Source of the DNA: Alphaproteobacteria bacterium
Lineage (GTDB): Bacteria > Pseudomonadota > Alphaproteobacteria > Bin95
Assembly: GCA_022827685.1 (NCBI GenBank)
Contig: JAJEIH010000053.1
Coordinates: 56 to 64,055 of the forward strand
Reading direction: 5' to 3'
Length of the DNA stretch: 64,000 nt
Positions 1 to 43,234 of the stretch are shown one piece after another. The number at the start of each line of letters is the position of its first letter. Position 1 is the stretch's first letter. The position numbers and the translations under genes were made by a program. The notes beneath the pieces were generated by a model. That model had not been told where the DNA came from. It did no database searches and saw only the letters and a list, made by a program, of their open reading frames with translations.

Positions 1-235
1 TTGCGGCGGCGCGGTTCGCGCGCCTGATTGCGCGCGCGAGGCAGAGGGCGCACCTCTCCCGTCGGCTTCTCACGGGTTTTCAGAAAATGGCGCCGCCCGG
101 CCGCGCAACGCCCGGGACGCGGCTCCGGATGCCGCTTCCCTCGGGACCATCATAACACAATCCGCCAGATGTCAAGCCCAAAACACGAACAAAAAGCAAT
201 TTCACCAGATTTTTTTCATGTTTGCGACTTTGGAA
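1..235 (+). repeat. Copy A of a ~230-bp dispersed intergenic repeat (R1). It may extend upstream of the window.
   Basis: Aligns over ~230 bp (estimated ~70% identity) with 41962..42190. Shared blocks: cggcgcgg.tcg.gcgcctgattgc.cgcgcgcgaggcag; cacctc.cc.gtcggct; cttcc.tcgg.acccatcata.cac; atg.caagccc.aaaa; aatttca. An unusually A/T-rich tail is present in both copies. Confidence 0.7.
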
Positions 236-1589: not shown

Positions 1590-2870
1590 TCAATGCCATG
1601 CGGTTGCAGCTTGATCCGTCTTCCGCATCAGCACGATGCGGTTGGTGTTGGTGCCCTTGCGGTTGTTGGCCACGCCCCAGCAATTCGCCGTCTTGGTGAA
1701 TTTCTGCGCGTTCACCATGACGCCCTCGACGGCGAGCGGCAGGCCGCCGGCGGCCGCCACGACATGGTCCTCCAGCAGCACCCTGCCGCCCCGCACCTCG
1801 CCCACCTCGAAGGCGAGGAAGCCACCGGGGCGGAGCGTGCGCGCGATGTCCCGGAGGCTCGCATGGACGAAGGCCCGCCAGGCTTCCGGCGTCCTGTGCG
1901 CGGCGATCGGCACCGCGTCCTGGTCGATGCCGGCGAACCAGCAGCGCAACCAGTTGTCCGTGCGGTAGTCCACCACGTCGAGGAAGGGCGGCGAGGTGAC
2001 GACAAGATCGGCGGAGCCGTCCGGCACGAAGGCGGCATTGTCGGCCGGGGCCGCGCCGAGCAGCGCCGGCGGGTGCGGCGGCGGCGCGCCCGTCGAGAGC
2101 AGCGAGCGGCTCTTGCGCAGGATGAGCGCATCCACGTCGCGCGGGGGCGGCGTCTGCCCGCGCCTGGCGTTGATGCGGCGCTGCCGGTCCGCCCCGACCG
2201 CCTGGTTGGGCGGCATCGTATAGACCGAGAAGAAGCCCGGCGAATGGCCGGTGAGGCGGTTGAGGCAGACCATGCGGAGCCATTCGTCCACCGGGTCGAG
2301 CGCGCCCGACCGCTCGCGATCGATGAACCGGGCGCGCAGCGCGGCCAGGCGGGCAAGCACGGACTCGTGGAAGAAGACGCGCAGGTCGCCCAGCAGCGGT
2401 TCTTCCGGCAGGGCGGCGGAGGGAGGGATGTCCGCCAGCCGCGCGGCGATCTCTTCGAGGGAGGGCGGCGCGAGCCGGGGGCTGAGCAGCATGGCGGAGA
2501 GCGGGTTGATGTCGGAGCCGACCGGCCGGCGGCCCATCAGCGCGGCCTGCAAGGGCGTCGTGCCGCGCCCCATGAACGGGTCGTAAACCGCGTCGCCCGG
2601 CCGGGTCAGCCGCTCGATGAAGAAGGCCGGAAGCTGCGGCTTGAAACAGGCCCGGTAGCTGACCTCATGCAACCGGCTCGCCTTCCGCTGCCCGGAGGTC
2701 CAGAATTCGTTGGTGAAGCAGGGGATGCCGTTTCGTTCGGCGATGCGGGTGGCCCGTCCCCGATGGCTGAATGCGACCAGCTTGTCGGCAAAATTGAGCG
2801 GCCTCCCTGCCGCCGGAGGTTCCGCAACGGGCTGGAAGCCGTGGTCGGCCGGAAGGGCTGCGTCTTTCAA
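1590..2870 (-). CDS. DNA methyltransferase, N6_N4-MTase family. Motif I DPFMGRGTT comes before motif IV TSPPF, and the SPPF form suggests N4-cytosine or N6-adenine specificity. Start is TTG.
   Basis: Conserved FTNEFWTSGQR, YDPFMGRGTTPLQAALMGRRPVGSDINP and LVVTSPPFLDVVDY motifs. The only start-like codon upstream of the conserved N-terminus is the TTG at 2868-2870, which overlaps the NHase-alpha TGA (gagTTGAaag). Confidence 0.7.
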   Translation of the reverse strand: MKDAALPADHGFQPVAEPPAAGRPLNFADKLVAFSHRGRATRIAERNGIPCFTNEFWTSGQRKASRLHEVSYRACFKPQLPAFFIERLTRPGDAVYDPFMGRGTTPLQAALMGRRPVGSDINPLSAMLLSPRLAPPSLEEIAARLADIPPSAALPEEPLLGDLRVFFHESVLARLAALRARFIDRERSGALDPVDEWLRMVCLNRLTGHSPGFFSVYTMPPNQAVGADRQRRINARRGQTPPPRDVDALILRKSRSLLSTGAPPPHPPALLGAAPADNAAFVPDGSADLVVTSPPFLDVVDYRTDNWLRCWFAGIDQDAVPIAAHRTPEAWRAFVHASLRDIARTLRPGGFLAFEVGEVRGGRVLLEDHVVAAAGGLPLAVEGVMVNAQKFTKTANCWGVANNRKGTNTNRIVLMRKTDQAATAWH

Positions 2871-3499
2871 CTCTCGCCGGGCGCCCGCGCAGGGGCGGTG
2901 CCGATGAGGGCGTCTCGGGTGACGAGGGCGGCCAGTGCGTCCTCGTCCATGTCGTCGGTGCCTTCCGGGCGGCGCGGCAGCACGATGTAGCGGAGGTCGG
3001 CCGTGCTGTCGTGGACGCGGACTTCCACACCGTCGGGCAGCTCCGTGCCGAACTCCGCCAATACGGCGCGCGGCTCGCGGACGACGCGCGCGCGGTAGGC
3101 CTTCTTCTTGTACCAGGCGGGCGGCAGGCCCAGCACCATGCGCGGATAGCAGGAGCAGAGCGTGCAGACGATGACATTGTGGACATCGCCGGTGTTCTCG
3201 ACCACGCGCACGGTCGGGCTGTGCTCCAGCTCGAAGCCTTCCTCCGCCAGCAGGCCCGCCGCGTCCTCCAGCAGCCGGGCCTTGTAGGCCGGGTCGATCC
3301 AGGCGCGGGCGACGAGGCGCGCGCCGTTCGCCGGCGTCAGGCTGTCCATCGCCTCGATCCGGCGCTGGATGGCGGCGGCGTCGAGAATGCCCTTCTCGAT
3401 CAGCAGCTCGCGGATCGCGCGCTCCAGCGGCTCGTAACCGCTCGACGGGTCGTCAGCGGCAGGCGGGTGGCGATGAGAGTGGACGTGCGGGTCGTTCAT
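2867..3499 (-). CDS. Nitrile hydratase alpha subunit, cobalt type
   Basis: Near-complete alignment to characterised Co-NHase alpha. The metal-binding VCTLCSCYP motif has Thr (Co-type) rather than Ser (Fe-type). Also LGLPPAWYKKKAYRARVVREPR and YIVLPRRPEGTDDMDEDALAALVTRDALIG. GGAGGA RBS sits 7 nt upstream; the ATG overlaps the upstream gene's TGA (ATGA). Confidence 0.9.
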   Translation of the reverse strand: MNDPHVHSHRHPPAADDPSSGYEPLERAIRELLIEKGILDAAAIQRRIEAMDSLTPANGARLVARAWIDPAYKARLLEDAAGLLAEEGFELEHSPTVRVVENTGDVHNVIVCTLCSCYPRMVLGLPPAWYKKKAYRARVVREPRAVLAEFGTELPDGVEVRVHDSTADLRYIVLPRRPEGTDDMDEDALAALVTRDALIGTAPARAPGES

Positions 3500-3783
3500 G
3501 GCCTGTCCTCCAGCTGCTGGAGCCAGTGTTCGTAAATGTCCGCGTCGAGCGTGTCCGCCGGCCCGCCCGCATAGCCGTCCCAGAGGTCGGCCTGCCGGAA
3601 CCGCACCTGGTAGAGCGCCAGCGGCGGGTCGCCCGGCCGGAAATAGGCGAGCGCCTCGGGGTTCGGGAAGCGGCCGAGACAGGCCGTCACCACGCCCTCG
3701 CGGCCCTTGAGATAGCCGGGCACGCGGTGATGGCCGGCATGGAAGCGGTCGTCCACCCTGACCTTGGTGCCGTTCTCGATCAC
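3496..3783 (-). CDS. Small subunit homologous to the C-terminal domain of nitrile hydratase beta (ToyK- or SCNase-alpha-like). Start is GTG.
   Basis: VIENGTKVRVDDRFHAGHHRVPGYLKGREGVVTA...LYQVRFRQADLWDGYAGGPADTLDADIYEHWLQ matches the NHase-beta C-terminal SH3-like domain (GH.R.P.Y.RGK.G.V, LY.V.F...ELWG). AAGGAGG sits 10 nt upstream of the GTG. The GTGA overlaps the upstream gene's stop. The rest of the long ORF 3496..4272 is Arg/Gly-rich junk. Confidence 0.65.
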   Translation of the reverse strand: MIENGTKVRVDDRFHAGHHRVPGYLKGREGVVTACLGRFPNPEALAYFRPGDPPLALYQVRFRQADLWDGYAGGPADTLDADIYEHWLQQLEDRP

Positions 3784-4079
3784 GGGCCGCGCCCTCCTTC
3801 TTCGCCGGCAAGATGCGCCTCGATGTCGGCGCGGTCCAGAATGCCGAGCTCCTCCAGCGCGGCCCGGAGCGCCTGAAGCCGCCGGTCGTACCAGGCCGCG
3901 CCTTCCGACATATCCTGGCGGAGCGCCTCCATCGTCCGGCGGTGCGCCTCGACAAGCTCCGCCTCGCCGCTGTCCGCGAGCAGGGACAGCAGCGCCTCCA
4001 CCCGCCGCTCGTAGAGCGTCGGCTGGCGCGGCTCCGCCGCCGCGTCGATCCCGGCATGATCGTGCATGGGACCGAACAT
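3780..4079 (-). CDS. Small subunit homologous to the N-terminal domain of nitrile hydratase beta (ToyL- or SCNase-beta-like)
   Basis: MFGPMHDHAGIDAAAEPRQPTLYERRVEALLSLL...AAWYDRRLQALRAALEELGILDRADIEAHL shows distant but collinear similarity to the NHase-beta N-terminal helical domain (MNGVHD.GG...EP.F...WE..AFA...YY.HWI....L...G.I...EL). It ends with the TGA that overlaps the next gene's GTG start. An alternative ATG lies at 4067. Confidence 0.55.
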   Translation of the reverse strand: MFGPMHDHAGIDAAAEPRQPTLYERRVEALLSLLADSGEAELVEAHRRTMEALRQDMSEGAAWYDRRLQALRAALEELGILDRADIEAHLAGEEGGRGP

Positions 4080-4150: not shown

Positions 4151-5044
4151 ATGTCCGAGCGCCGCACCACACGCCTGAAACGCCTCGTGCAGGCGCCCGA
4201 AATCCTGGTCGCGCCGGGGGTCGTGGACGGCATCGGCGCGCGGCTGGTGGCGAAGGCCGGCTTCGATGCCATCTACATGACGGGCGCGGGCGCGACGGCA
4301 AGCCGGCTCGGCATGCCGGATGTCGGCCTGCTGACCATGACCGAGATGGCGGACAATGCCGGGCGCATCGCCGACGCCTCCGGCCTGCCGCTGGTGGCGG
4401 ACGCCGACACGGGCTATGGCGGCCCGGTGAATGTGCGCCGCACGGTGCAGGCCTATGAGCGCGCGGGCGTGGCGGGGCTGCATATCGAGGACCAGTCCTG
4501 GCCCAAGCGCTGCGGGCACCTGGCCGGCAAGACGGTGATCCCGAAGGCCGAAATGGTCGCGAAGATCATGGCGGCGTGCGACGCGCGCATCGACCCCGAC
4601 TTCCAGGTCATCGCGCGCTGCGACGCCATCGCGGTGGAAGGCTGGGAGCCGGCCATCGAGCGCGTGGAGGCCTATCAGGAAGCCGGCGCGGACATTCTCT
4701 TCGTCGAGGCGATGACCACGATGGAGCAGCTCGCCTTCGCGCCGAAGCATTTCCGCGCGCCGTGCCTGTTCAACATGGCCGGCAGCGGCAAGACGCCGGA
4801 CCTTTCGGCTGCGGAGATGGAAGCGCTCGGCTACGGCATCGCGATCTTCCCCGGCATCACGATCTCGGCGGCGATCCCCGCCATGACGCGCGCGCTCGAG
4901 ACGCTGCGGGAAACCGGCGACGTGCGCCCGATGCGCAACGAGTTCACGCCCTTCCGGGAGTATTTCGACCTGATGGGCATGGCCGAGGTGCAGGCGCTGG
5001 AGGACCGCTACGCGGTCGATGACGCCGCCCGCGTCGGCTATTGA
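4151..5044 (+). CDS. Isocitrate lyase / PEP mutase family enzyme (methylisocitrate-lyase or dimethylmalate-lyase-like, or oxaloacetate decarboxylase)
   Basis: Full-length match to the ICL/PEPM (beta/alpha)8 family: GAGATASRLGMPDVGLLT, DADTGYGG, HIEDQ..PKRCGH, ARCDA, AGADILFVEA. Confidence 0.85.
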   Translation: MSERRTTRLKRLVQAPEILVAPGVVDGIGARLVAKAGFDAIYMTGAGATASRLGMPDVGLLTMTEMADNAGRIADASGLPLVADADTGYGGPVNVRRTVQAYERAGVAGLHIEDQSWPKRCGHLAGKTVIPKAEMVAKIMAACDARIDPDFQVIARCDAIAVEGWEPAIERVEAYQEAGADILFVEAMTTMEQLAFAPKHFRAPCLFNMAGSGKTPDLSAAEMEALGYGIAIFPGITISAAIPAMTRALETLRETGDVRPMRNEFTPFREYFDLMGMAEVQALEDRYAVDDAARVGY

Positions 5045-5057
5045 GGATACAGCGCCC

Positions 5058-6452
5058 ATGCCAGCCACGATGTTCGACAAGATCTGGGACGCCCACGCGA
5101 TCCTGGAGCGCGAGGGCAACACCCTCCTGCATGTCGCCTTCCACCTCTGCCATGACGGCTCGGCCGGCGGCTTCGCCAATCTGAAGCAGCGCGGCCTCAA
5201 GGTGCGCCGGCCGGACCGCATGGCCGGCACGCCCGACCACTATGTGCCGACCACCAGCCGGCGCATCGAGGACCTCGCCACCGAGGACATGAGGCGCATC
5301 TTCCGCGTCTTCGGCGAGAACTTCACGGCCAACGGGATCACGCATTTCCCGGTGGAGGACGCGCGCCAGGGCATCATCCATGTCGTGGGCCCGGAGCAGG
5401 GCTTCACGCAGCCGGGGCTGGTGATCGTCTGCGGCGACAGCCACACCTCGACGCATGGCGCGGTCGGCGCCATCGCCTTCGGCATCGGCTCCTCGGAGGT
5501 CGCCCATGTCATGGCGACGCAGGCGCTCTGGCAGAAGCGGCCGAAGACCATGCGCATCACCGTCAACGGCGAGCGGCCCTTCGGCGTCACCGGCAAGGAC
5601 GCGATCCTGGCCATCATCGCCCATATCGGCGCCGTCGGCGGCACGGGCTACGCCGTGGAATATGCGGGCTCGCTCATCCGCGCCTTCTCGATGGAGGAGC
5701 GGCTCACGGTCTGCAACATGTCGATCGAGGCGGGCGCGCGCTGCGGCATGATCGCGCCGGACGACAAGACCTTCGACTACCTGAAGGGCCGGCCGTTCGC
5801 GCCCGCCGGCGCCGAATGGGACAAGGCCGTCGCCCACTGGCGGGGCCTGCCGTCGGACCCCGGCGCCGCCTTCGACCGCGAGGAGGCGCTGGACGGGGCC
5901 GCGCTCGCGCCGATGGTGACCTGGGGCACGAGCCCGGAGAACGCCGTCGCGGTGACGGACCGGGTGCCCGACCCGTCAAACGAGCCGGACGAAGAGCGCC
6001 GCGCCGCGCTGGAGGGCGCCATCGACTATATGGGCCTCGCCGCCGGGCAGGCGATCACGGATATCGAGGTGGACCGGGTGTTCATCGGGTCCTGCACCAA
6101 CAGCCGCATCGAGGATCTGCGCGCCGCCGCGAAGGTGGTGGAGGGGCGCCGGATCAGGGTCGGCCACGCCTTCGTCTCCCCCGGTTCCGGCCTCATCAAG
6201 AAACAGGCCGAGGAAGAGGGCCTCGACCGCATCTTCACCGAGGCGGGCTTCGAGTGGCGGGAGAGCGCGTGTTCGATGTGCGTCGGCATGAACGGCGACA
6301 TTGCGCGCCCCGGCGAGCGCACCGCGTCCACCTCCAACCGCAATTTCCGCGGGCGGCAGGGTCCGGGCGTGCGCACCCATCTGGTGAGCCCGGCCATGGC
6401 GGCCGCGGCGGCGGTCAGCGGCCGGTTCGCCGATGTGCGCGAATTCGGCTGA
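5058..6452 (+). CDS. 3-isopropylmalate dehydratase / aconitase-family large subunit (LeuC-like)
   Basis: Aconitase-family motifs VCGDSHTSTHGA, NMSIEAG, GSCTNSRIEDL and ACSMCVGMN. The ATG at 5058 is preceded by GAGGA. Confidence 0.85.
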   Translation: MPATMFDKIWDAHAILEREGNTLLHVAFHLCHDGSAGGFANLKQRGLKVRRPDRMAGTPDHYVPTTSRRIEDLATEDMRRIFRVFGENFTANGITHFPVEDARQGIIHVVGPEQGFTQPGLVIVCGDSHTSTHGAVGAIAFGIGSSEVAHVMATQALWQKRPKTMRITVNGERPFGVTGKDAILAIIAHIGAVGGTGYAVEYAGSLIRAFSMEERLTVCNMSIEAGARCGMIAPDDKTFDYLKGRPFAPAGAEWDKAVAHWRGLPSDPGAAFDREEALDGAALAPMVTWGTSPENAVAVTDRVPDPSNEPDEERRAALEGAIDYMGLAAGQAITDIEVDRVFIGSCTNSRIEDLRAAAKVVEGRRIRVGHAFVSPGSGLIKKQAEEEGLDRIFTEAGFEWRESACSMCVGMNGDIARPGERTASTSNRNFRGRQGPGVRTHLVSPAMAAAAAVSGRFADVREFG

Positions 6453-40722: not shown

Positions 40723-41463
40723 ATGACCCTGCTCTCCCGCGCCGTTCTCGCCTTCCTCCTCGCCGCGCTCGCCTGCCTGCCCTGGACCGCCCGCGAGGCG
40801 CGGGCCGACACCGAGCAGGAGGTCGCGGCCATCACCGAATATCTCCGCCAGAAGGATCCCGAAATCGTTCTCAAGGCCGTGCAGGCCTGGTGGGACGAGC
40901 AGGAGGACTACCGGCGACAGCAGCAGGTCGGGCGCATCGCCGCCAATTGGGAGGCGCTGGCGCGCGCCGGGGGCGACCCCGCCATCGGGCCGGAAGACGC
41001 CGACGCGGTGCTCGTCGAGTTCTTCGACTATCGCTGCGGCTTCTGCAAGCGCGTGCTGGGCGATGTGATGGCGCTGGCGGCTGCCGACAACCGGCTGCGC
41101 ATCGTCTTCAAGGAGTTCCCCATTCTGGGCGAGGTATCCGTGATCGCTGCCCGCGCTTCGCTCGCCGCCGACAGGCAGGGCAAATGGCCCGAGTTCCATG
41201 TCGCGCTCATGTCCGCCCCGGGCGAGCTCGACGAGGACCGGATCATGGATATCGCCGCCGAAACCGGCCTCGACATCGCGCAATTGCGCACCGACATGGA
41301 GAGCGAGGCCGTGACGGCGATCATCGAGCGCAACCACGCCCTTGCCCAAACGCTCGGCATTCGCGGCACCCCGGCCTTCCTGGTGAAAAACGCCATCGTC
41401 CCCGGCGCCGCCTCGCAGGAGGACCTGGCCAGACTCGTCGCGGGAGCGCGCGAGGCGGGGTAG
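40723..41463 (+). CDS. DsbA-family periplasmic thiol:disulfide oxidoreductase
   Basis: Signal peptide, and a CGFC active site in a thioredoxin fold (LVEFFDYRCGFCKR). Confidence 0.85.
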   Translation: MTLLSRAVLAFLLAALACLPWTAREARADTEQEVAAITEYLRQKDPEIVLKAVQAWWDEQEDYRRQQQVGRIAANWEALARAGGDPAIGPEDADAVLVEFFDYRCGFCKRVLGDVMALAAADNRLRIVFKEFPILGEVSVIAARASLAADRQGKWPEFHVALMSAPGELDEDRIMDIAAETGLDIAQLRTDMESEAVTAIIERNHALAQTLGIRGTPAFLVKNAIVPGAASQEDLARLVAGAREAG

Positions 41464-41470
41464 CGTCGGC

Positions 41471-41496
41471 GTCATGAGATGTCATGTTTCGTCATG
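41471..41496 (+). repeat. Triplet of 10-bp-periodic GTCATG direct repeats (cluster X1)
   Basis: GTCATGagatGTCATGtttcGTCATG, followed by the hairpin ggggcgg-gtct-ccgcccc (41497..41514), the likely dsbA terminator. Confidence 0.8.
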
Positions 41497-41590
41497 GGGC
41501 GGGTCTCCGCCCCGGTCGTTTGCAAGGCATTGCAGCCTCCTTGACGGTCTGCGGTCCCGGACGCCCCGCTGCCGGAAGGGCGCTCCCCTC

Positions 41591-41607
41591 GCGCGCATAA
41601 TGCGCGC
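41591..41607. promoter_or_regulatory. Perfect 17-bp palindrome GCGCGCATAATGCGCGC (candidate dimeric-regulator operator)
   Basis: Eight-bp arms around a single central A, lying between repeat clusters X1 and X2. Confidence 0.4.
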
Positions 41608-41666
41608 CCGGCTGCGCCCGCGCGCCCGCCTGCGCGAGGCGCGGAACCGGCCTCTCCACGGTGGAT

Positions 41667-41692
41667 GTCATGCAATGTCATGTTTCGTCATG
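41667..41692 (+). repeat. Triplet of 10-bp-periodic GTCATG direct repeats (cluster X2)
   Basis: GTCATGcaatGTCATGtttcGTCATG. Confidence 0.8.
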
Positions 41693-41718
41693 AGGAACTG
41701 CGGAACAGCGTCCGGTCT

Positions 41719-41757
41719 GTCATGAGATGTCATGTTCTGCATGCGCATGGCGCATGT
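41719..41757 (+). repeat. GTCATG direct-repeat cluster X3 (two exact units, then degenerate GCATG units)
   Basis: GTCATGagatGTCATGttctGCATGcGCATGgcGCATG. Confidence 0.7.
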
Positions 41758-41961
41758 CCCGCGGCTGGTTCCGGCATGGGATGGTCGTTTCGAGCGGGGT
41801 TCCGGGTATTCCATCCTGTTTTCCGGGTTCTGCATCTTCGGCATGGGGCCTTCCTTCCGGTCCGTCTTCGTTCCGTCCTTGCCGCCCGGCTTGTCCGAGC
41901 GGCGGGACTCTGATTCGCGCGTATCCTGCGCGCGCGCCTGCGCCGGCGGGGGCGGGCGTAT

Positions 41962-42190
41962 CGCGCCGGCGCGGCTCGTGCGCCTGATTGCCCGCGCGCG
42001 AGGCAGGCACAGGACACACCTCGCCTGTCGGCTGAATCGGGGTCGTTCCGCACCGGGCCGGCGCGGGCGGGAAGCGGTCCGCGCGGACTTCGCCTTCCTC
42101 GGACCCATCATACCACTGTTTCTGAGAATGCAAGCCCCAAAAAGAGAAATATTACTTAAATTTCAGGAACAATTTGCCGGAGCACAAGCC
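41962..42190 (+). repeat. Copy B of the ~230-bp dispersed repeat R1
   Basis: See 1..235. Confidence 0.7.
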
Positions 42191-42373
42191 ATTCAGGTTG
42201 AGACGACCCTGTTGGCAGAGTCCCGAATCGTCCGCCGCAGAGGCAGTGCTGCATCGAGTCCGCAGCCTCGCAGGAGGATCTGTGGCCAAACTCGCTGCGG
42301 GAGCGCAAGGGGCGGGGTGACGCCGGCGGCGGGGCCTTGAACGATCCGGTGGAGCAGGCTGCCCGGGGCCGGT

Positions 42374-43234
42374 TCAGCGCCCCGGCCGGGCTTCGCGCAT
42401 GGCGATATAGGTCGCGCTCGCAAAGACGAGGATGCCGCCGGCGACGGTCCAGACATCGGGGACTTCGCCGTAGAGCATGAGGCCGCCCAGCGCGGCGAAG
42501 GGCAGGCGGAGGAAGTCGAACGGCATGACCGCGCCGGCCTCGCCGGTCGCGAGCGCGCGCGTCAGGCACATATGCGCGGCGAAGCCGGAGCCCGCGAGCA
42601 GCGCAATCCAGGGCAGCGCGTCGAGCGACGGCGTGACCCACATGAGCGCCGTGGGCGCGGCCGAGAAGGCAAGCAGCAGCGCGTTCACCGTGAACACCAT
42701 GCGCGTCGGGGATTCGGTGTCCGCCATCGCCTTCACGCAGATATTGCTGACCGCGTAGCAGAGCGCCGCGCCGAGCAGCATGGCCGTGGGCAGGCCGACC
42801 GCCGCGAAGCCGGGCCGCACGATCACCAGCACGCCGGCGAAGCCCGCGAGCGTCGCCAGCCAGCGGCGGATTCCGGGGCGCTCGGCGAACAGCAGCATCG
42901 CCAGCAGGATCGTGAACAGCGGATAGGCCGACTGGATCGCCACCGCATCGGCGAGCGGCACGATGCCGATGGCGTGGAACCACATCATCATGGCGGCGAA
43001 GGTGCTGACTCCGCGCAGCAGGTTGGGCCAGGGACGCCGGATGCGCAGCCCGTCCCGGCCGGCCCGCACCGCCCAGGGGACCAGCAGCACCATGGTGAAC
43101 AGGCAGCGGAAGAACAGGATTTCCGGCGTCGGCAGGCTTGCGGACAGCTCCCGGACGCAAATGACGAGCAGGCTGAAGGCCGCCGCCGCGCCGACCATCC
43201 AGGCGACGGCGCCGAGATTGCGCTGCGGCTGCAT
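42374..43234 (-). CDS. EamA/DMT-family transporter
   Basis: Ten-TM DMT topology with duplicated EamA domains. Confidence 0.75.
   Translation of the reverse strand: MQPQRNLGAVAWMVGAAAAFSLLVICVRELSASLPTPEILFFRCLFTMVLLVPWAVRAGRDGLRIRRPWPNLLRGVSTFAAMMMWFHAIGIVPLADAVAIQSAYPLFTILLAMLLFAERPGIRRWLATLAGFAGVLVIVRPGFAAVGLPTAMLLGAALCYAVSNICVKAMADTESPTRMVFTVNALLLAFSAAPTALMWVTPSLDALPWIALLAGSGFAAHMCLTRALATGEAGAVMPFDFLRLPFAALGGLMLYGEVPDVWTVAGGILVFASATYIAMREARPGR

Follow-up and report, generated by a model that had tools for sequence, protein, structure and literature searches.

Probable relic of a dispersed terS-like cassette in the phased hexamer clusters between dsbA and an EamA gene of an alphaproteobacterium

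The three clusters of phased hexamers that lie between dsbA and an EamA gene in the 64,000-nucleotide stretch of alphaproteobacterial DNA analysed here (the window) are the tail end of a decayed cassette copy, and not a gene switch for the dsbA-EamA locus. Comparison with related loci shows that positions 41472 to ~42169, read on the minus strand, correspond to a composite copy, lacking the gene, of a chromosomal cassette that occurs many times per genome. The copy is one unit plus a 5'-truncated second unit, with clusters X3 and X2 ending the former and X1 ending the latter (Table 1). In our judgement the clusters are probably the relic of a dispersed cassette carrying a terS-like gene, in which the array is a putative recognition site for a TerS-like protein. 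The family appears to be undescribed, and all of its sampled members come from uncultured, largely sponge-associated Alphaproteobacteria.

Re-reading of the window bore out the cluster coordinates, the sequences, and the exact 10-bp spacing given by the sequence-only reading, and the start-to-start distances between clusters are 196 and 52 bp. The pattern GTCATG-N4-GTCATG, with at most one mismatch, occurs five times in the 64-kb window, always within the clusters, versus 0.17 occurrences expected from shuffles (0/100 shuffles reached five). The region between the two convergent genes is also gene-free, as had been proposed, comprising a 910-bp stretch without coding signal. Open reading frames (ORFs) in 41464-42373 have GC3 values of 0.48-0.76, as against 0.87-0.94 in real genes, and the codon-position GC signature of coding sequence is absent from every one of them. 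Public annotations place an ORF of 200-202 aa in this spacer, which is, judged by its sequence, probably spurious. A 58-aa frame beginning with MPKMQ and the seven-codon MTxHDIx-stop frames created by the arrays were likewise discarded as protein and peptides, as they lack the coding GC3 signal and their conservation is that of a nucleotide repeat.

Table 1. Features of the dsbA-EamA locus and of the cassette copies in the window
Feature	Position	Strand	Remarks
Second leader copy	2..183	-	Different subfamily; nhmmer E = 1.3e-37; cut by window edge
dsbA (DsbA)	40723-41463	+	Pfam-supported; TAG stop 41461-41463
dsbA 3' end, copy 1 of direct duplication	41405..41471	+	Last ~68 bp including TAG; abuts X1; z = 17.9
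Cluster X1	41471..41496	-	GTCATGagatGTCATGtttcGTCATG; three CATGAC units, 10-bp period, minus-strand reading
Type A spacer module	41497..41646	-	Hairpin GGGGCGGGTCTCCGCCCC beside X1; palindrome GCGCGCATAATGCGCGC
Terminal motif of unit 1	41647..41666	-	atccacc (7 nt) + GTGGAGAGGCCGG, past X2 in transcript direction
Cluster X2	41667..41692	-	GTCATGcaatGTCATGtttcGTCATG; three CATGAC units, 10-bp period
Cluster X3	41719..41757	-	Two exact units 41719-41734 GTCATGagatGTCATG, then degenerate GCATG sequence to ~41757
Type B spacer, leader to clusters	41758..41941	-	Conserved in L025, L096, L062, L103, L005, L072, L104
Conserved ~200-nt leader	41942..42143	-	nhmmer profile match E = 3.9e-35; includes near-invariant block GGCAATCAGGCGCACGAGCCGCGCCGGCGC
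5' hairpin of leader	42069..42098	-	Alifold on leader alignment; covariation-supported
Putative sigma-70-type promoter	42107..42133	-	-35 TTGCAT 42133..42128, 15-nt spacer, -10 TATGAT 42112..42107
AT-rich upstream arm	42134..42169	-	Among the window's low-GC spots
Segment between element boundary and dsbA remnant	42170..42259	.	~90 bp; unlike upstream dsbA sequence, z = -0.8
dsbA 3' end, decayed copy 2	42260..42328	+	80% identical, one 1-nt indel, TGA stop
EamA gene	42374-43234	-	Pfam-supported; convergent with dsbA

Similarity to other loci covers 41445-42150, more than the hexamers, and a profile of the leader gave 62 matches down to E = 1e-45, two of them inside the window. The sequence-only reading had passed over this similarity across the whole ~700 bp, as well as the second leader copy at 2-183; it had also missed that reading the opposite strand puts the clusters downstream of a conserved promoter-like element and leader. 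The second leader copy has an AT-rich arm, a low-GC spot, just upstream, at a position equal to that in L104 and L042. A search of Rfam 15 returned only a sub-threshold aspS match (22 bits versus a gathering score of 42.5, E = 0.7).

At the 5' end of the leader fall promoter-like hexamers, which in the window copy point toward dsbA and have a weakened -35 (TTGCAT). Both hexamers and their spacing are found in 34/34 full-length copies, mostly as TTGACA-N15-TATGAT, an element that a generic promoter scanner requiring a spacer of 16-18 nt does not call. Such conservation suggests that the pair is a putative sigma-70-like promoter. The hairpin in the leader is 91.5% paired across the alignment, with 32 compensatory cells versus 12.6 in shuffles (0/500), and it beats all slid controls in pair counts. 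For the AT-rich arm, LexA-box (GAAC-N7-GAAC) and CtrA-box readings were set aside by eye for misfits of spacing or sequence. A 98%-identical strain (L117) diverges past 42169.

Between the leader and the clusters lies the type B spacer, whose conserved flank is X3 in the family alignment. The spacer keeps a relic ribosome-binding site and an ATG (41844..41842) where terS-like genes start, a match made by eye against the terS start of L040, and holds no ORF with a coding signature by the GC3 test. Past X2, the arrangement CATGAC-N7-TGGAGTGGGCCCC is common to ~10 loci, and the homology of the paralogues L027 and L090 stops at CATGAC-N7-GAGGGGG. The type A spacer is 70-75% identical to seven other loci (L009, L033, L085, L089, L062, L035, L103) and matches the 3' end of the leader region of unit 1 at 82% over 34 nt; a leader profile search of 41497..41646 gave no significant match. 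We regard this module, with moderate confidence based on these alignments, as the probable body of the 5'-truncated second unit. X1 is the outer end of the composite element, with the dsbA stop 8 bp away.

The sequence-only reading also overlooked a second copy of the final ~68 bp of dsbA, 857 bp downstream of the first (z = 13.1 for the control alignment). The two copies of this 68-bp stretch bracket the insertion in the dsbA-EamA spacer. The TGA stop of the decayed copy matches that of two orthologues (L122 and L123), and this copy runs on into the ancestral dsbA-EamA spacer. Extension of the duplication back to the element boundary was rejected, since the segment between the two has no similarity to upstream dsbA. 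An integrase/att-site origin was dismissed as well, there being no integrase nearby and the flanks of other copies being unrelated to the duplication. A VR/TR pair of a diversity-generating retroelement does not fit either, as the mismatches fall at all bases and are not adenine-specific; no reverse-transcriptase domain was found among the neighbouring genes of the locus. Neither dsbA nor EamA is regulated by the cassette copy, whose promoter would at most send antisense transcription into the dsbA 3' end.

A complete cassette is ~1.4 kb long and runs from an AT-rich arm through the -35/-10 pair (TTGACA-N15-TATGAT) and a ~200-nt hairpin leader to a gene and an array of two to four CATGAC(A)NNN units exactly 10 bp apart, which stands ~14-30 nt short of the end of the unit. 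Two pairs of paralogues within one genome (L022/L023 and L027/L090; 94.5-99% identical) lose homology ~30-55 bp upstream of the -35 and ~14 nt past the last CATGAC. Recent paralogue duplicates were sought in the metagenome sample to refine these ends, and only orthologous or rearranged pairs were found. Two candidate features of the ends did not hold up: a degenerate array at the promoter-side end, hinted at by ACATCGCA in L022/L023, is not general, and the flank duplications of L062-type copies, considered as target duplications, are actually another REP-like repeat.

The initial set of loci was chosen by the hexamer pattern and is biased, a bias that the protein-selected and leader-selected tests correct. 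At ~45 loci, every cluster is co-oriented with the leader and distal to it. Among leader-selected metagenome loci, a co-oriented array lies within 2 kb downstream in 52/58 (median 219 bp), none is anti-oriented, and arrays upstream of the leader number 0/75; across the family, the distance from the leader is 120-1080 bp, never upstream. The helical-turn geometry of three or so head-to-tail sites, which the sequence-only reading had recognized in the window, is kept family-wide, with 144 of 160 neighbouring units at exactly 10 bp and one at 11 bp. The 7-bp core is invariant, the 3-nt spacers are A/T-rich and differ in a conserved order, and, of the leader-selected copies, which differ by 15-30% elsewhere, 90% keep their arrays.

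Gene-less derivatives consisting of promoter, leader and arrays far outnumber gene-carrying copies and form their own amplified subfamily (56/58). Each genome has at least 5-9 pattern-positive blocks, and the cassettes are intergenic, beside unrelated genes and in either orientation relative to them. Their presence or absence is polymorphic between 95%-identical relatives, and a 93% relative has a different insertion in the same dsbA-EamA spacer. A distant blastn search of a plasmid collection gave no match, and viral contigs yielded no family members, only relatives of the helix-turn-helix (HTH) at 31-36%. In one phage fragment, an anecdotal case, the same array is found 22 bp from the fragment end, upstream of terL.

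Intact copies carry a solitary terS-like gene (Pfam Terminase_2 E = 2.8e-13; phrog_51 E = 2.4e-15), whose product also matches the DNA-binding domains of SF6/SPP1 TerS in the PDB (4zc3, 2cmp, 3zqp; E = 0.004-0.016). The protein comprises an SF6/SPP1-type small-terminase HTH, a helical oligomerisation region and an acidic tail, and its AF2 model is all-alpha, with pLDDT 92-97 in the HTH and no catalytic fold. There are 299 homologues, with 3-5 paralogues per Mb contig, and dN/dS is 0.07-0.37 in the DNA-binding part; as judged from these sequences, the protein appears to be kept under purifying selection in several paralogues per genome. The gene stands alone among metabolic genes in seven loci (L126, L127, L143, L040, L087, L090, L027), and no large terminase or other packaging gene was found near any cassette copy examined. 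The window copy has lost the gene, which was not found anywhere in the 64 kb.

The array is physically joined to this gene, supplying its last two to four codons and the TGA stop. The C-terminus HDxx, found in 101/120 homologues, corresponds to CAT GAC Axx xCA TGA with the observed spacers, and 84% of protein-selected members keep at least the first two array units. In all three loci selected by protein alone, the leader precedes a gene that is solitary among metabolic genes and whose stop codon is overlapped by the array. The array is not exclusive to terS, because a second, unrelated cargo, an acidic protein of ~200 aa without Pfam matches, uses the same frame of promoter, leader and array. 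Neither PADLOC nor NCBIfam returned anything for either cargo protein.

By analogy with phage packaging, the most likely function of the array would be that of a pac-like phased binding array for an oligomeric TerS-like protein. It would be a cis-acting recognition site, as are the pac direct repeats in SPP1/SF6-type phages, and the strict 10-bp geometry speaks for an oligomeric protein that binds cooperatively along one face of the DNA. With 7-bp cores one helical turn apart and A/T-rich spacers between them, successive sites would be presented on the same face, where a ring or filament of HTH domains could bind and wrap them. Protein made from intact copies could act in trans on gene-less copies such as that in the window.

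The pac site of these phages is a group of short direct repeats in physical linkage with terS (PMC4737164). The cassette is similar in that the N-terminal HTH of its cargo matches Terminase_2, in that its repeat set lies beside a terS-like gene and overlaps its stop, with binding being putative, and in its fixed polarity. It differs in the place of the repeats, which close the gene at its 3' end and provide the stop codon, whereas those of SPP1 are at the 5' end, a point that speaks against the TerS-array reading. Furthermore, the cassette gene stands alone, terL, portal and capsid genes being absent from its surroundings; there are 3-5 or more paralogues per contig and most sites have lost the gene; and the protein carries a long acidic tail. 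The assignment of the repeats as TerS sites is insecure even in the model system, because pac DNA is reported to be bound weakly, and with little discrimination of sequence, by the DNA-binding domain of SF6 in isolation (PMC4737164).

Among the alternatives, the one that fares best, though unlikely, is that the arrays are subterminal sites for a transposase or recombinase encoded elsewhere in the genome, which would move cassettes with and without a gene alike, with the TerS-like and acidic proteins as passengers. The multicopy, dispersed and intergenic occurrence in either orientation, the polymorphism between relatives, and the amplified gene-less subfamily all fit a transposable element, as do the fixed distance between the arrays and a short GC-rich terminal motif and the sharing of one frame by two different cargo genes. 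Several loci have an end of an IS3-family insertion sequence (IS) always 7 nt from the array, and at one locus a complete IS3-type transposase is the array's neighbour. Multiple phased transposase sites at one end are a feature of Tn7, Mu and Tn402-type elements. The suggestion of a MITE-like remnant, raised as a side possibility in the sequence-only reading, came close to the result: like MITEs, the non-coding copies of 0.5-0.8 kb are multicopy and intergenic, differ in presence between close relatives, outnumber gene-carrying relatives and share their ends. However, unlike MITEs, the cassette has no terminal inverted repeats, the promoter-side end lacking inverted copies of array and terminal motif and carrying no arrays in either orientation (0/75). 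There is no regular target-site duplication: convincing flank repeats, of 58 and 68 bp, are found in only 2 of ~45 copies, and none is seen at the occupied-versus-empty site of L104 and the window or at L027/L090. A survey of 395 neighbouring genes turned up no recurrent recombinase family. Most copies lack the IS3-like repeat, which where present is external to the array, and the 'autonomous' partner encodes a DNA-binding protein without a catalytic domain instead of a transposase.

It is more doubtful still that the arrays work at the level of RNA or translation, as a 3' module providing stops and starts in three frames or as a 3'-UTR signal for binding, stability or termination. Three CATGAC at 10 nt do put TGA and ATG in all three frames, and the arrays end the ORFs of both cargo families; they are always downstream of and co-oriented with promoter and leader and are therefore probably transcribed, and an excess of G·U over A·C cells in the leader hairpin supports transcription of that strand. 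However, a single TGA would suffice to end an ORF, and gene-less copies retain arrays though nothing needs terminating. No U-tract or terminator lies past the arrays, and RNA folding gave no particular structure there. A repeated 7-mer with a strict 10-nt period and A/T-rich spacers has a natural meaning for B-DNA; we know of none for RNA.

The interpretation favoured in the sequence-only reading, a Pho-box-like cooperative operator for an OmpR/PhoB-family regulator controlling a nearby small RNA or small ORF, now appears very improbable. The core TGTCAT resembles the Pho-box half-site CTGTCAT, and OmpR-family regulators typically bind head-to-tail sites ~10 bp apart. As to the unannotated unit that had been supposed nearby, a conserved and probably transcribed one is indeed present, but its only conserved promoter-like element is 280-640 bp upstream of the clusters, which occupy the distal 3' end of the unit, beyond the leader. 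The array, with a TGTCATG core and 3-bp spacers, has a period of 10 bp and not the 11 bp of the Pho box (144 units versus 1), whose CTGTCAT repeats are separated by 4 bp. A Pho box replaces the -35, with a -10 ~10 bp downstream; no -10 follows the clusters on the plus strand, and a generic scan called no promoter-like site adjoining them on either strand. No response-regulator gene recurs among the genes neighbouring cassette copies, nor is there a link to phosphate or envelope genes. The motif overlaps the stop codon of terS-like genes and belongs to a multicopy element dispersed beside unrelated genes in either orientation; the sequence-only reading had itself named confinement to IS or MITE ends as evidence against an operator. 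A mini-satellite of decamers that has no function and travels with a pseudogenised gene family, for which the variable unit number (2 to 4) and the plain GTCATG-containing tandem decamers of unrelated taxa might speak, is scarcely credible given the invariant core beside spacers that differ in conserved order, and the retention of arrays in both the leader-selected and the protein-selected copies.

Other families of intergenic repeats offer partial parallels. Pneumococcal BOX, Neisseria Correia/NIME and enterobacterial BIME elements are modular intergenic repeats with promoter-like sequences and stable hairpins, whose mobility is unknown or indirect. The cassette is similarly modular (arm, leader, spacer modules, variable array number) and intergenic, but it is much larger and clearly derived from a protein-coding cassette, and those elements have no counterpart of its strictly phased heptamer array. 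In Beggiatoaceae, likewise uncultured marine bacteria, 169 sets of intergenic TAACTGA direct repeats are described (PMC4679880); these too are heptamers in many sets per genome and of unknown function, but the available part of that report indicates no frame of promoter, leader and gene.

A bolder version of the preferred terS-like reading, which we put forward as speculation and hold to be quite unlikely, is that the cassette is a minimal selfish 'terS plus pac' unit forming a distributed, built-in lateral-transduction system. The TerS-like protein, produced by a few intact copies, would occupy phased arrays at dozens of places on the chromosome, pac-only parasites without the gene among them, and bring in a large terminase supplied by a resident phage or gene-transfer agent; packaging would start in situ at the array, in a direction set by it, and the cassette would spread by recombination of co-packaged flanks. 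Among known systems, chromosomal satellites of the PICI/SaPI type carry their own terS and pac and redirect the packaging machinery of a helper, and in lateral transduction packaging can start in situ and take adjacent host DNA (PMC8575950). Those islands are 5-15 kb long, with an integrase, regulators, replication functions and one or few att sites, unlike the cassette of ~1.4 kb with its one gene and many unrelated sites. If true, the scheme would mean that the whole symbiont chromosome is mobilised, and it would explain why insertions lack transposon footprints and why the dsbA end is present twice, as a homeologous 68-bp duplication.

The analysis removes a false lead, in that the repeats are not a regulatory site of dsbA, EamA or a local small RNA gene, and it defines an apparently undescribed repeat family in sponge-symbiont Alphaproteobacteria, with a small-terminase-like DNA-binding protein as its only conserved product. 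Such a family raises the questions of what copies a cassette that encodes no recombinase and what role a terS without a terminase has at so many places in the chromosome. In practice it also endangers assembly and binning, because its copies are points where contigs break or switch, as in L117. Should the arrays be packaging or recognition sites, distributed entry points for DNA packaging would exist in these genomes, which would bear on chromosomal gene exchange among uncultured symbionts.

The three GTCATG clusters X1, X2 and X3 (CATGAC on the minus strand) are terminal arrays belonging to a dispersed cassette, a repeat unit consisting of an AT-rich arm, a promoter-like pair, a ~200-nt leader, an optional gene and a terminal CATGAC array. 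These arrays are tied to a terS-like gene (terS and terL being the genes for the small and large terminase subunits), and the copy in the window is a gene-less relic. The clusters lie where the sequence-only reading had placed them, and their start-to-start distances were re-measured as 196 and 52 bp. With at most one mismatch allowed, GTCATG-N4-GTCATG is found five times in the 64-kb window (expected, 0.17), each time in the cluster region. As DsbA is encoded on the plus strand and EamA on the minus strand, the flanking genes are convergent, and the space between them is gene-free, both as previously described: ORFs within 41464-42373 show no third-position GC bias (GC3 0.48-0.76 versus 0.87-0.94 in real genes; genome GC, 69%), and a GC3-based gene caller found zero genes there, yet recovered all Pfam-supported neighbours. 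In near-identical contigs a hypothetical protein of 200-202 aa is publicly annotated here (window 41732-42340, plus strand; L116 7010-7612; L120 1688-2296; L-numbers denote loci outside the window). This ORF spans the leader on the opposite strand, has a GC3 of 0.70 versus 0.87-0.94 for real genes and has no Pfam match; it is probably an annotation artefact arising from a conserved non-coding repeat.

In ~45 loci the clusters all lie downstream of the leader in the same orientation (CATGAC in the leader direction), and the next host gene past the arrays, often 8-70 bp away, has either orientation (~25 co-oriented versus 17 convergent). Because these loci had been chosen by the hexamer pattern, the test was repeated on 120 metagenome loci chosen solely by the invariant leader block. 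A co-oriented array was present within 2 kb (median 219 bp) in 52 of the 58 loci with at least 1.7 kb downstream, an anti-oriented one in none of them, and no array was seen upstream in any of the 75 loci with at least 2 kb on that side. In same-genome paralogues (L022/L023 at 98-99%; L027/L090 at 94.5% over 1,358 bp), homology is lost ~30-55 bp upstream of the -35 and ~14 nt past the last CATGAC, directly after CATGAC-N7-GAGGGGG. Together with the downstream position of the arrays, these ends show the arrays to be the last module of a discrete unit.

Array units are spaced by exactly 10 bp in 144 of 160 neighbouring pairs and by 9 or 11 bp in three; 50 arrays hold three units, 17 hold two and nine hold four, and the A/T-rich spacers are conserved in order. 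CATGAC repeated three times at a 10-nt period places ATG and TGA in all three frames of the transcript strand (e.g., 41471-41496); an ORF that runs into an array is closed after at most 26 nt, and the repeats also create a frame of seven codons, MT(K/E)HD(I/T)(S/P) plus stop. This three-frame content is probably a by-product of array geometry. X2 is followed by 7 nt and GTGGAGAGGCCGG, a terminal motif also present in ~10 other loci, and the X2-to-X1 segment is weakly similar to the 3' end of the leader region (82% over 34 nt). From these two features we read the window element as one unit ending in X3 and X2, plus a putative 5'-truncated second unit ending in X1. Gene-less copies usually have two arrays, separated by 200-320 bp.

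Similarity between the window and the family loci goes beyond the hexamers and is found in modules over 41445-42150. An nhmmer profile of the most widely shared module gave 62 matches (best E = 1e-45), two of them in the window. The second window copy is cut by the window edge, and its arrays would therefore fall outside; it is downstream of an NAD-dependent epimerase gene. Leaders of its subfamily have a terminator-like hairpin at ~70-95 nt, which may act as an attenuator or form the 3' terminus of a short RNA; the U-tract of this hairpin is missing from the leader of the copy near dsbA. Promoter-like hexamers, usually TTGACA-N15-TATGAT (= CTTGAC-N16-TATGAT), are found at the upstream end of the module in all 34 full-length copies. 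An AT-rich arm precedes them, and the two arms are the sole low-GC spots of the window. A generic sigma-70 scan requiring a 16-18-nt spacer did not call the element in either window copy or in L022, and so it is from conservation and position that we infer a putative promoter. In the hairpin that follows, 91.5% of cells are paired, with 32 compensatory cells versus 12.6 in shuffles (0/500 as high), and the pairing is better than in every slid control. The excess of G·U over A·C cells (~20 versus ~8) favours the minus (leader) strand as the one folded, and hence presumably transcribed. Further along the leader lies a near-invariant block, CGCGCGCGCAATCAGGCGCGCGAACCGCGCCGGCGC; Rfam contained no family matching the leader or element.

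Features of the cassette copies and their surroundings in the window
Feature	Position	Strand	Basis or remark
Second promoter/leader copy	2-183, arm to ~260	-	nhmmer E = 1.3e-37, clipped at window edge
Terminator-like hairpin, second copy	89-112	-	U-rich tail
NAD-dependent epimerase gene	465-1418	-
DsbA	40723-41463	+
dsbA terminal ~68 bp	41405-41471		stops exactly at X1
X1	41471-41496
X2	41667-41692
X3	41719-41734		then degenerate GCATG units
Module used for leader profile	41942-42143
5' hairpin of leader	42098..42069	-	directly downstream of hexamers; stem sequence varies among copies
Putative promoter, window copy	TTGCAT 42133..42128, TATGAT 42112..42107	-	conservation, position
dsbA remnant	42260-42328		repeats the dsbA end
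EamA	42374-43234	-

The dsbA end is repeated beyond the element at 80% identity with a 1-nt indel, and this copy has its own TGA stop and continues into the EamA-proximal spacer. As the two copies flank the region, ~790 bp were inserted between them. The remnant terminates in GGGGTGACG, as do the gene ends of L122 and L123, which suggests that it is the end of the resident gene, moved away by the insertion. The 68-bp duplication stops short of the element boundary, with no similarity to upstream dsbA sequence in 42170-42259; it may represent a long duplication of the target or a scar left by Campbell-type/homeologous recombination. Strains 98-100% identical to the window also have the element at this locus. 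In L117 (98% identical) dsbA and the element are retained, but past window 42169/70 (L117 4090 onward) the right flank is a TRAP-transporter region rather than the remnant followed by EamA; this change of flank at the promoter-side end of the element may reflect either a genuine rearrangement or a switch made in assembly across the repeat. In L122, a syntenic 93% orthologue, the dsbA-EamA spacer has neither element nor remnant and instead holds a low-GC insertion of ~1 kb (4742-5804) encoding a 280-aa multi-pass membrane-like protein. This spacer is an insertion hot spot; in more distant orthologues dsbA lies 16-22 bp from a different convergent gene. Nothing indicates that the window element influences the expression of dsbA or EamA.

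The triple hexamer occurs in many 8-kb blocks of uncultured alphaproteobacterial MAGs, with at least 5-9 blocks per genome, the pattern scan having covered one genome per species. The family copies have in common a repeat unit, TGTCATG followed by three spacer nucleotides, and recurring flanks of the types found after X1 and X3. Members were found in Aplysina aerophoba sponge data (MKWU01, bin65) and in a Spongia bin, and none in the plasmid and viral collections searched; MKWU01 is the Illumina-only metagenome assembly of the A. aerophoba study, in which bin65 is an uncultured Rhodospirillaceae (PMC5649159). The epimerase-side copy at the left edge of the window is common to L104 and L042, and therefore some insertions are old; this one is both old and inherited. 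L104 (95% identical) also carries a copy within a terminator-like hairpin, a site that is empty in the window (about 1449-1460).

The commoner cargo between leader and array is a ~320-aa protein, residues 11-82 of which match Pfam Terminase_2 (E = 2.8e-13) as well as PHROG terminase-small-subunit families. The nearest solved structures are the SF6/SPP1 small-terminase DNA-binding domains 4zc3, 2cmp and 3zqp (E = 0.004-0.016). An all-alpha AlphaFold model built with 60 homologues shows a confidently predicted HTH bundle (pLDDT 92-97) and long helices extending to ~residue 106, beyond which the chain is acidic and mostly disordered; the model contains neither a nuclease nor a recombinase fold. 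All 299 homologues at E <= 1e-5 come from uncultured Alphaproteobacteria assemblies, and single megabase contigs carry 3-5 distinct paralogues. Three loci retrieved via the protein alone have the leader upstream of the gene (L126, E = 1e-40; L127, 1e-43; L143, 3e-9) and the array over its stop codon; each gene is solitary amid metabolic genes, with no large terminase beside it. In 101 of 120 homologues the C-terminus is HD plus two residues (HDIA, HDIS, HDRT, HDKT, HDIP and others), which corresponds exactly to CAT GAC Axx xCA TGA with the observed spacers, so that throughout the family the array forms an integral part of the 3' end of the gene. Purifying selection acts on the terS-like genes, with dN/dS of 0.07-0.37 across the first 110 codons and 0.39-0.70 in the tail. 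A second cargo, an acidic ~200-aa protein beginning MTATDPRP, occupies the same promoter-leader-array frame in four loci (L022, L023, L031, L082); it has a weak phrog_31793 match and no Pfam match, and its short remnants persist in otherwise gene-less copies (L042 6454-6552, L008 6165-6266). Neither cargo matched PADLOC or NCBIfam models. Among leader-selected copies, 56 of 58 lack a gene, a proportion that the selection pattern may inflate by favouring a gene-less subfamily.

We infer that the TerS-like protein would recognise the arrays as its site, because the sole conserved protein of the family is a small-terminase-type DNA binder, because such proteins work as HTH-domain rings on pac sites, and because one-turn phasing with A/T-rich spacers fits selection for binding or wrapping on one face. 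In SPP1, too, pac is made up of direct-repeat sets at terS (PMC4737164), whereas the cassette array lies at the opposite end of the gene. This reading is tempered by the little specificity with which the isolated SF6 domain binds (PMC4737164), by the lack of a terminase partner in view and by the different cargo sharing the frame. That the arrays are instead end sites of a transposase encoded elsewhere is possible but doubtful. The cassette does share features with non-autonomous repeat families, and to this extent the earlier suggestion of a MITE-like remnant stands; unlike MITEs, however, it lacks inverted repeats, target duplication and a transposase partner. No recombinase or transposase family recurs among the 395 genes called around the copies, terminal inverted repeats and a promoter-side array are absent, and the L104 insertion replaced 11 bp without duplication. 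Convincing flank repeats occur in only two of ~45 copies (window, 68 bp; L009, 58 bp), the weaker ones being an unrelated REP-like repeat. An RNA- or translation-level 3' module we consider improbable. The response-regulator operator originally proposed is highly improbable, as the arrays differ from a Pho box in both period and promoter position, and a functionless mini-satellite is hardly credible.

Other repeats occur near the cassettes. An IS3/IS150-group-like terminal inverted repeat (TGGAGTGGGCCCCTTGGGTCGGACAGTTTC) adjoins arrays at a constant 7 nt (L035 ~4645-5900, L018 216, L107 7099 and ~10 more); L035 has a full IS3-type DDE transposase beside an array, and many loci retain just the outer 13 nt, which suggests either targeted IS insertion beside arrays or a shared terminal motif. 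GC-rich REP-like repeats (…CCCCGGATCGGGTCCGGGGCAGGCTGC…CCGGGGTGACG; GAGCTTGTCGAAGGGGACCCC) are common intergenically in these genomes, often beside cassettes (window 378 and 1485-1546; upstream arms of L028, L096, L062, L008, L076 and L043). Plain tandem decamers containing GTCATG, such as multiples of GTCATGGATT or GTCATGGGCC, are found in Dyadobacter (L020, L052, L061, L070, L112), Streptomyces (L004, L046, L055) and Planctomycetota (L017, L041, L056), and their flanks have nothing in common with the alphaproteobacterial family. L141, an unrelated phage fragment of low GC, contains TGTCATGAAATGTCATGTTCTGTCATG with family-typical spacers at 23-49, 22 bp from the contig end, and a large-terminase gene (2557-3849; phrog_2, E = 9e-45) 2.5 kb downstream of the array; as an anecdote, this favours a packaging connection. 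Comparable arrays lie close to the contig ends in the viral contigs L133 and L136, and form an inverted pair in L138.

We found no description of this cassette family in the searchable literature. It shares working features with both pac/TerS systems and non-autonomous repeat families, and differs from phage packaging modules and satellites in having no terL, integrase or replication genes. A more radical and decidedly doubtful reading is that the copies would be pac sites distributed over the chromosome on which the product of an orphan terS acts. We rate the cassette as an intergenic repeat, modular and dispersed, that descends from a selfish gene cassette.
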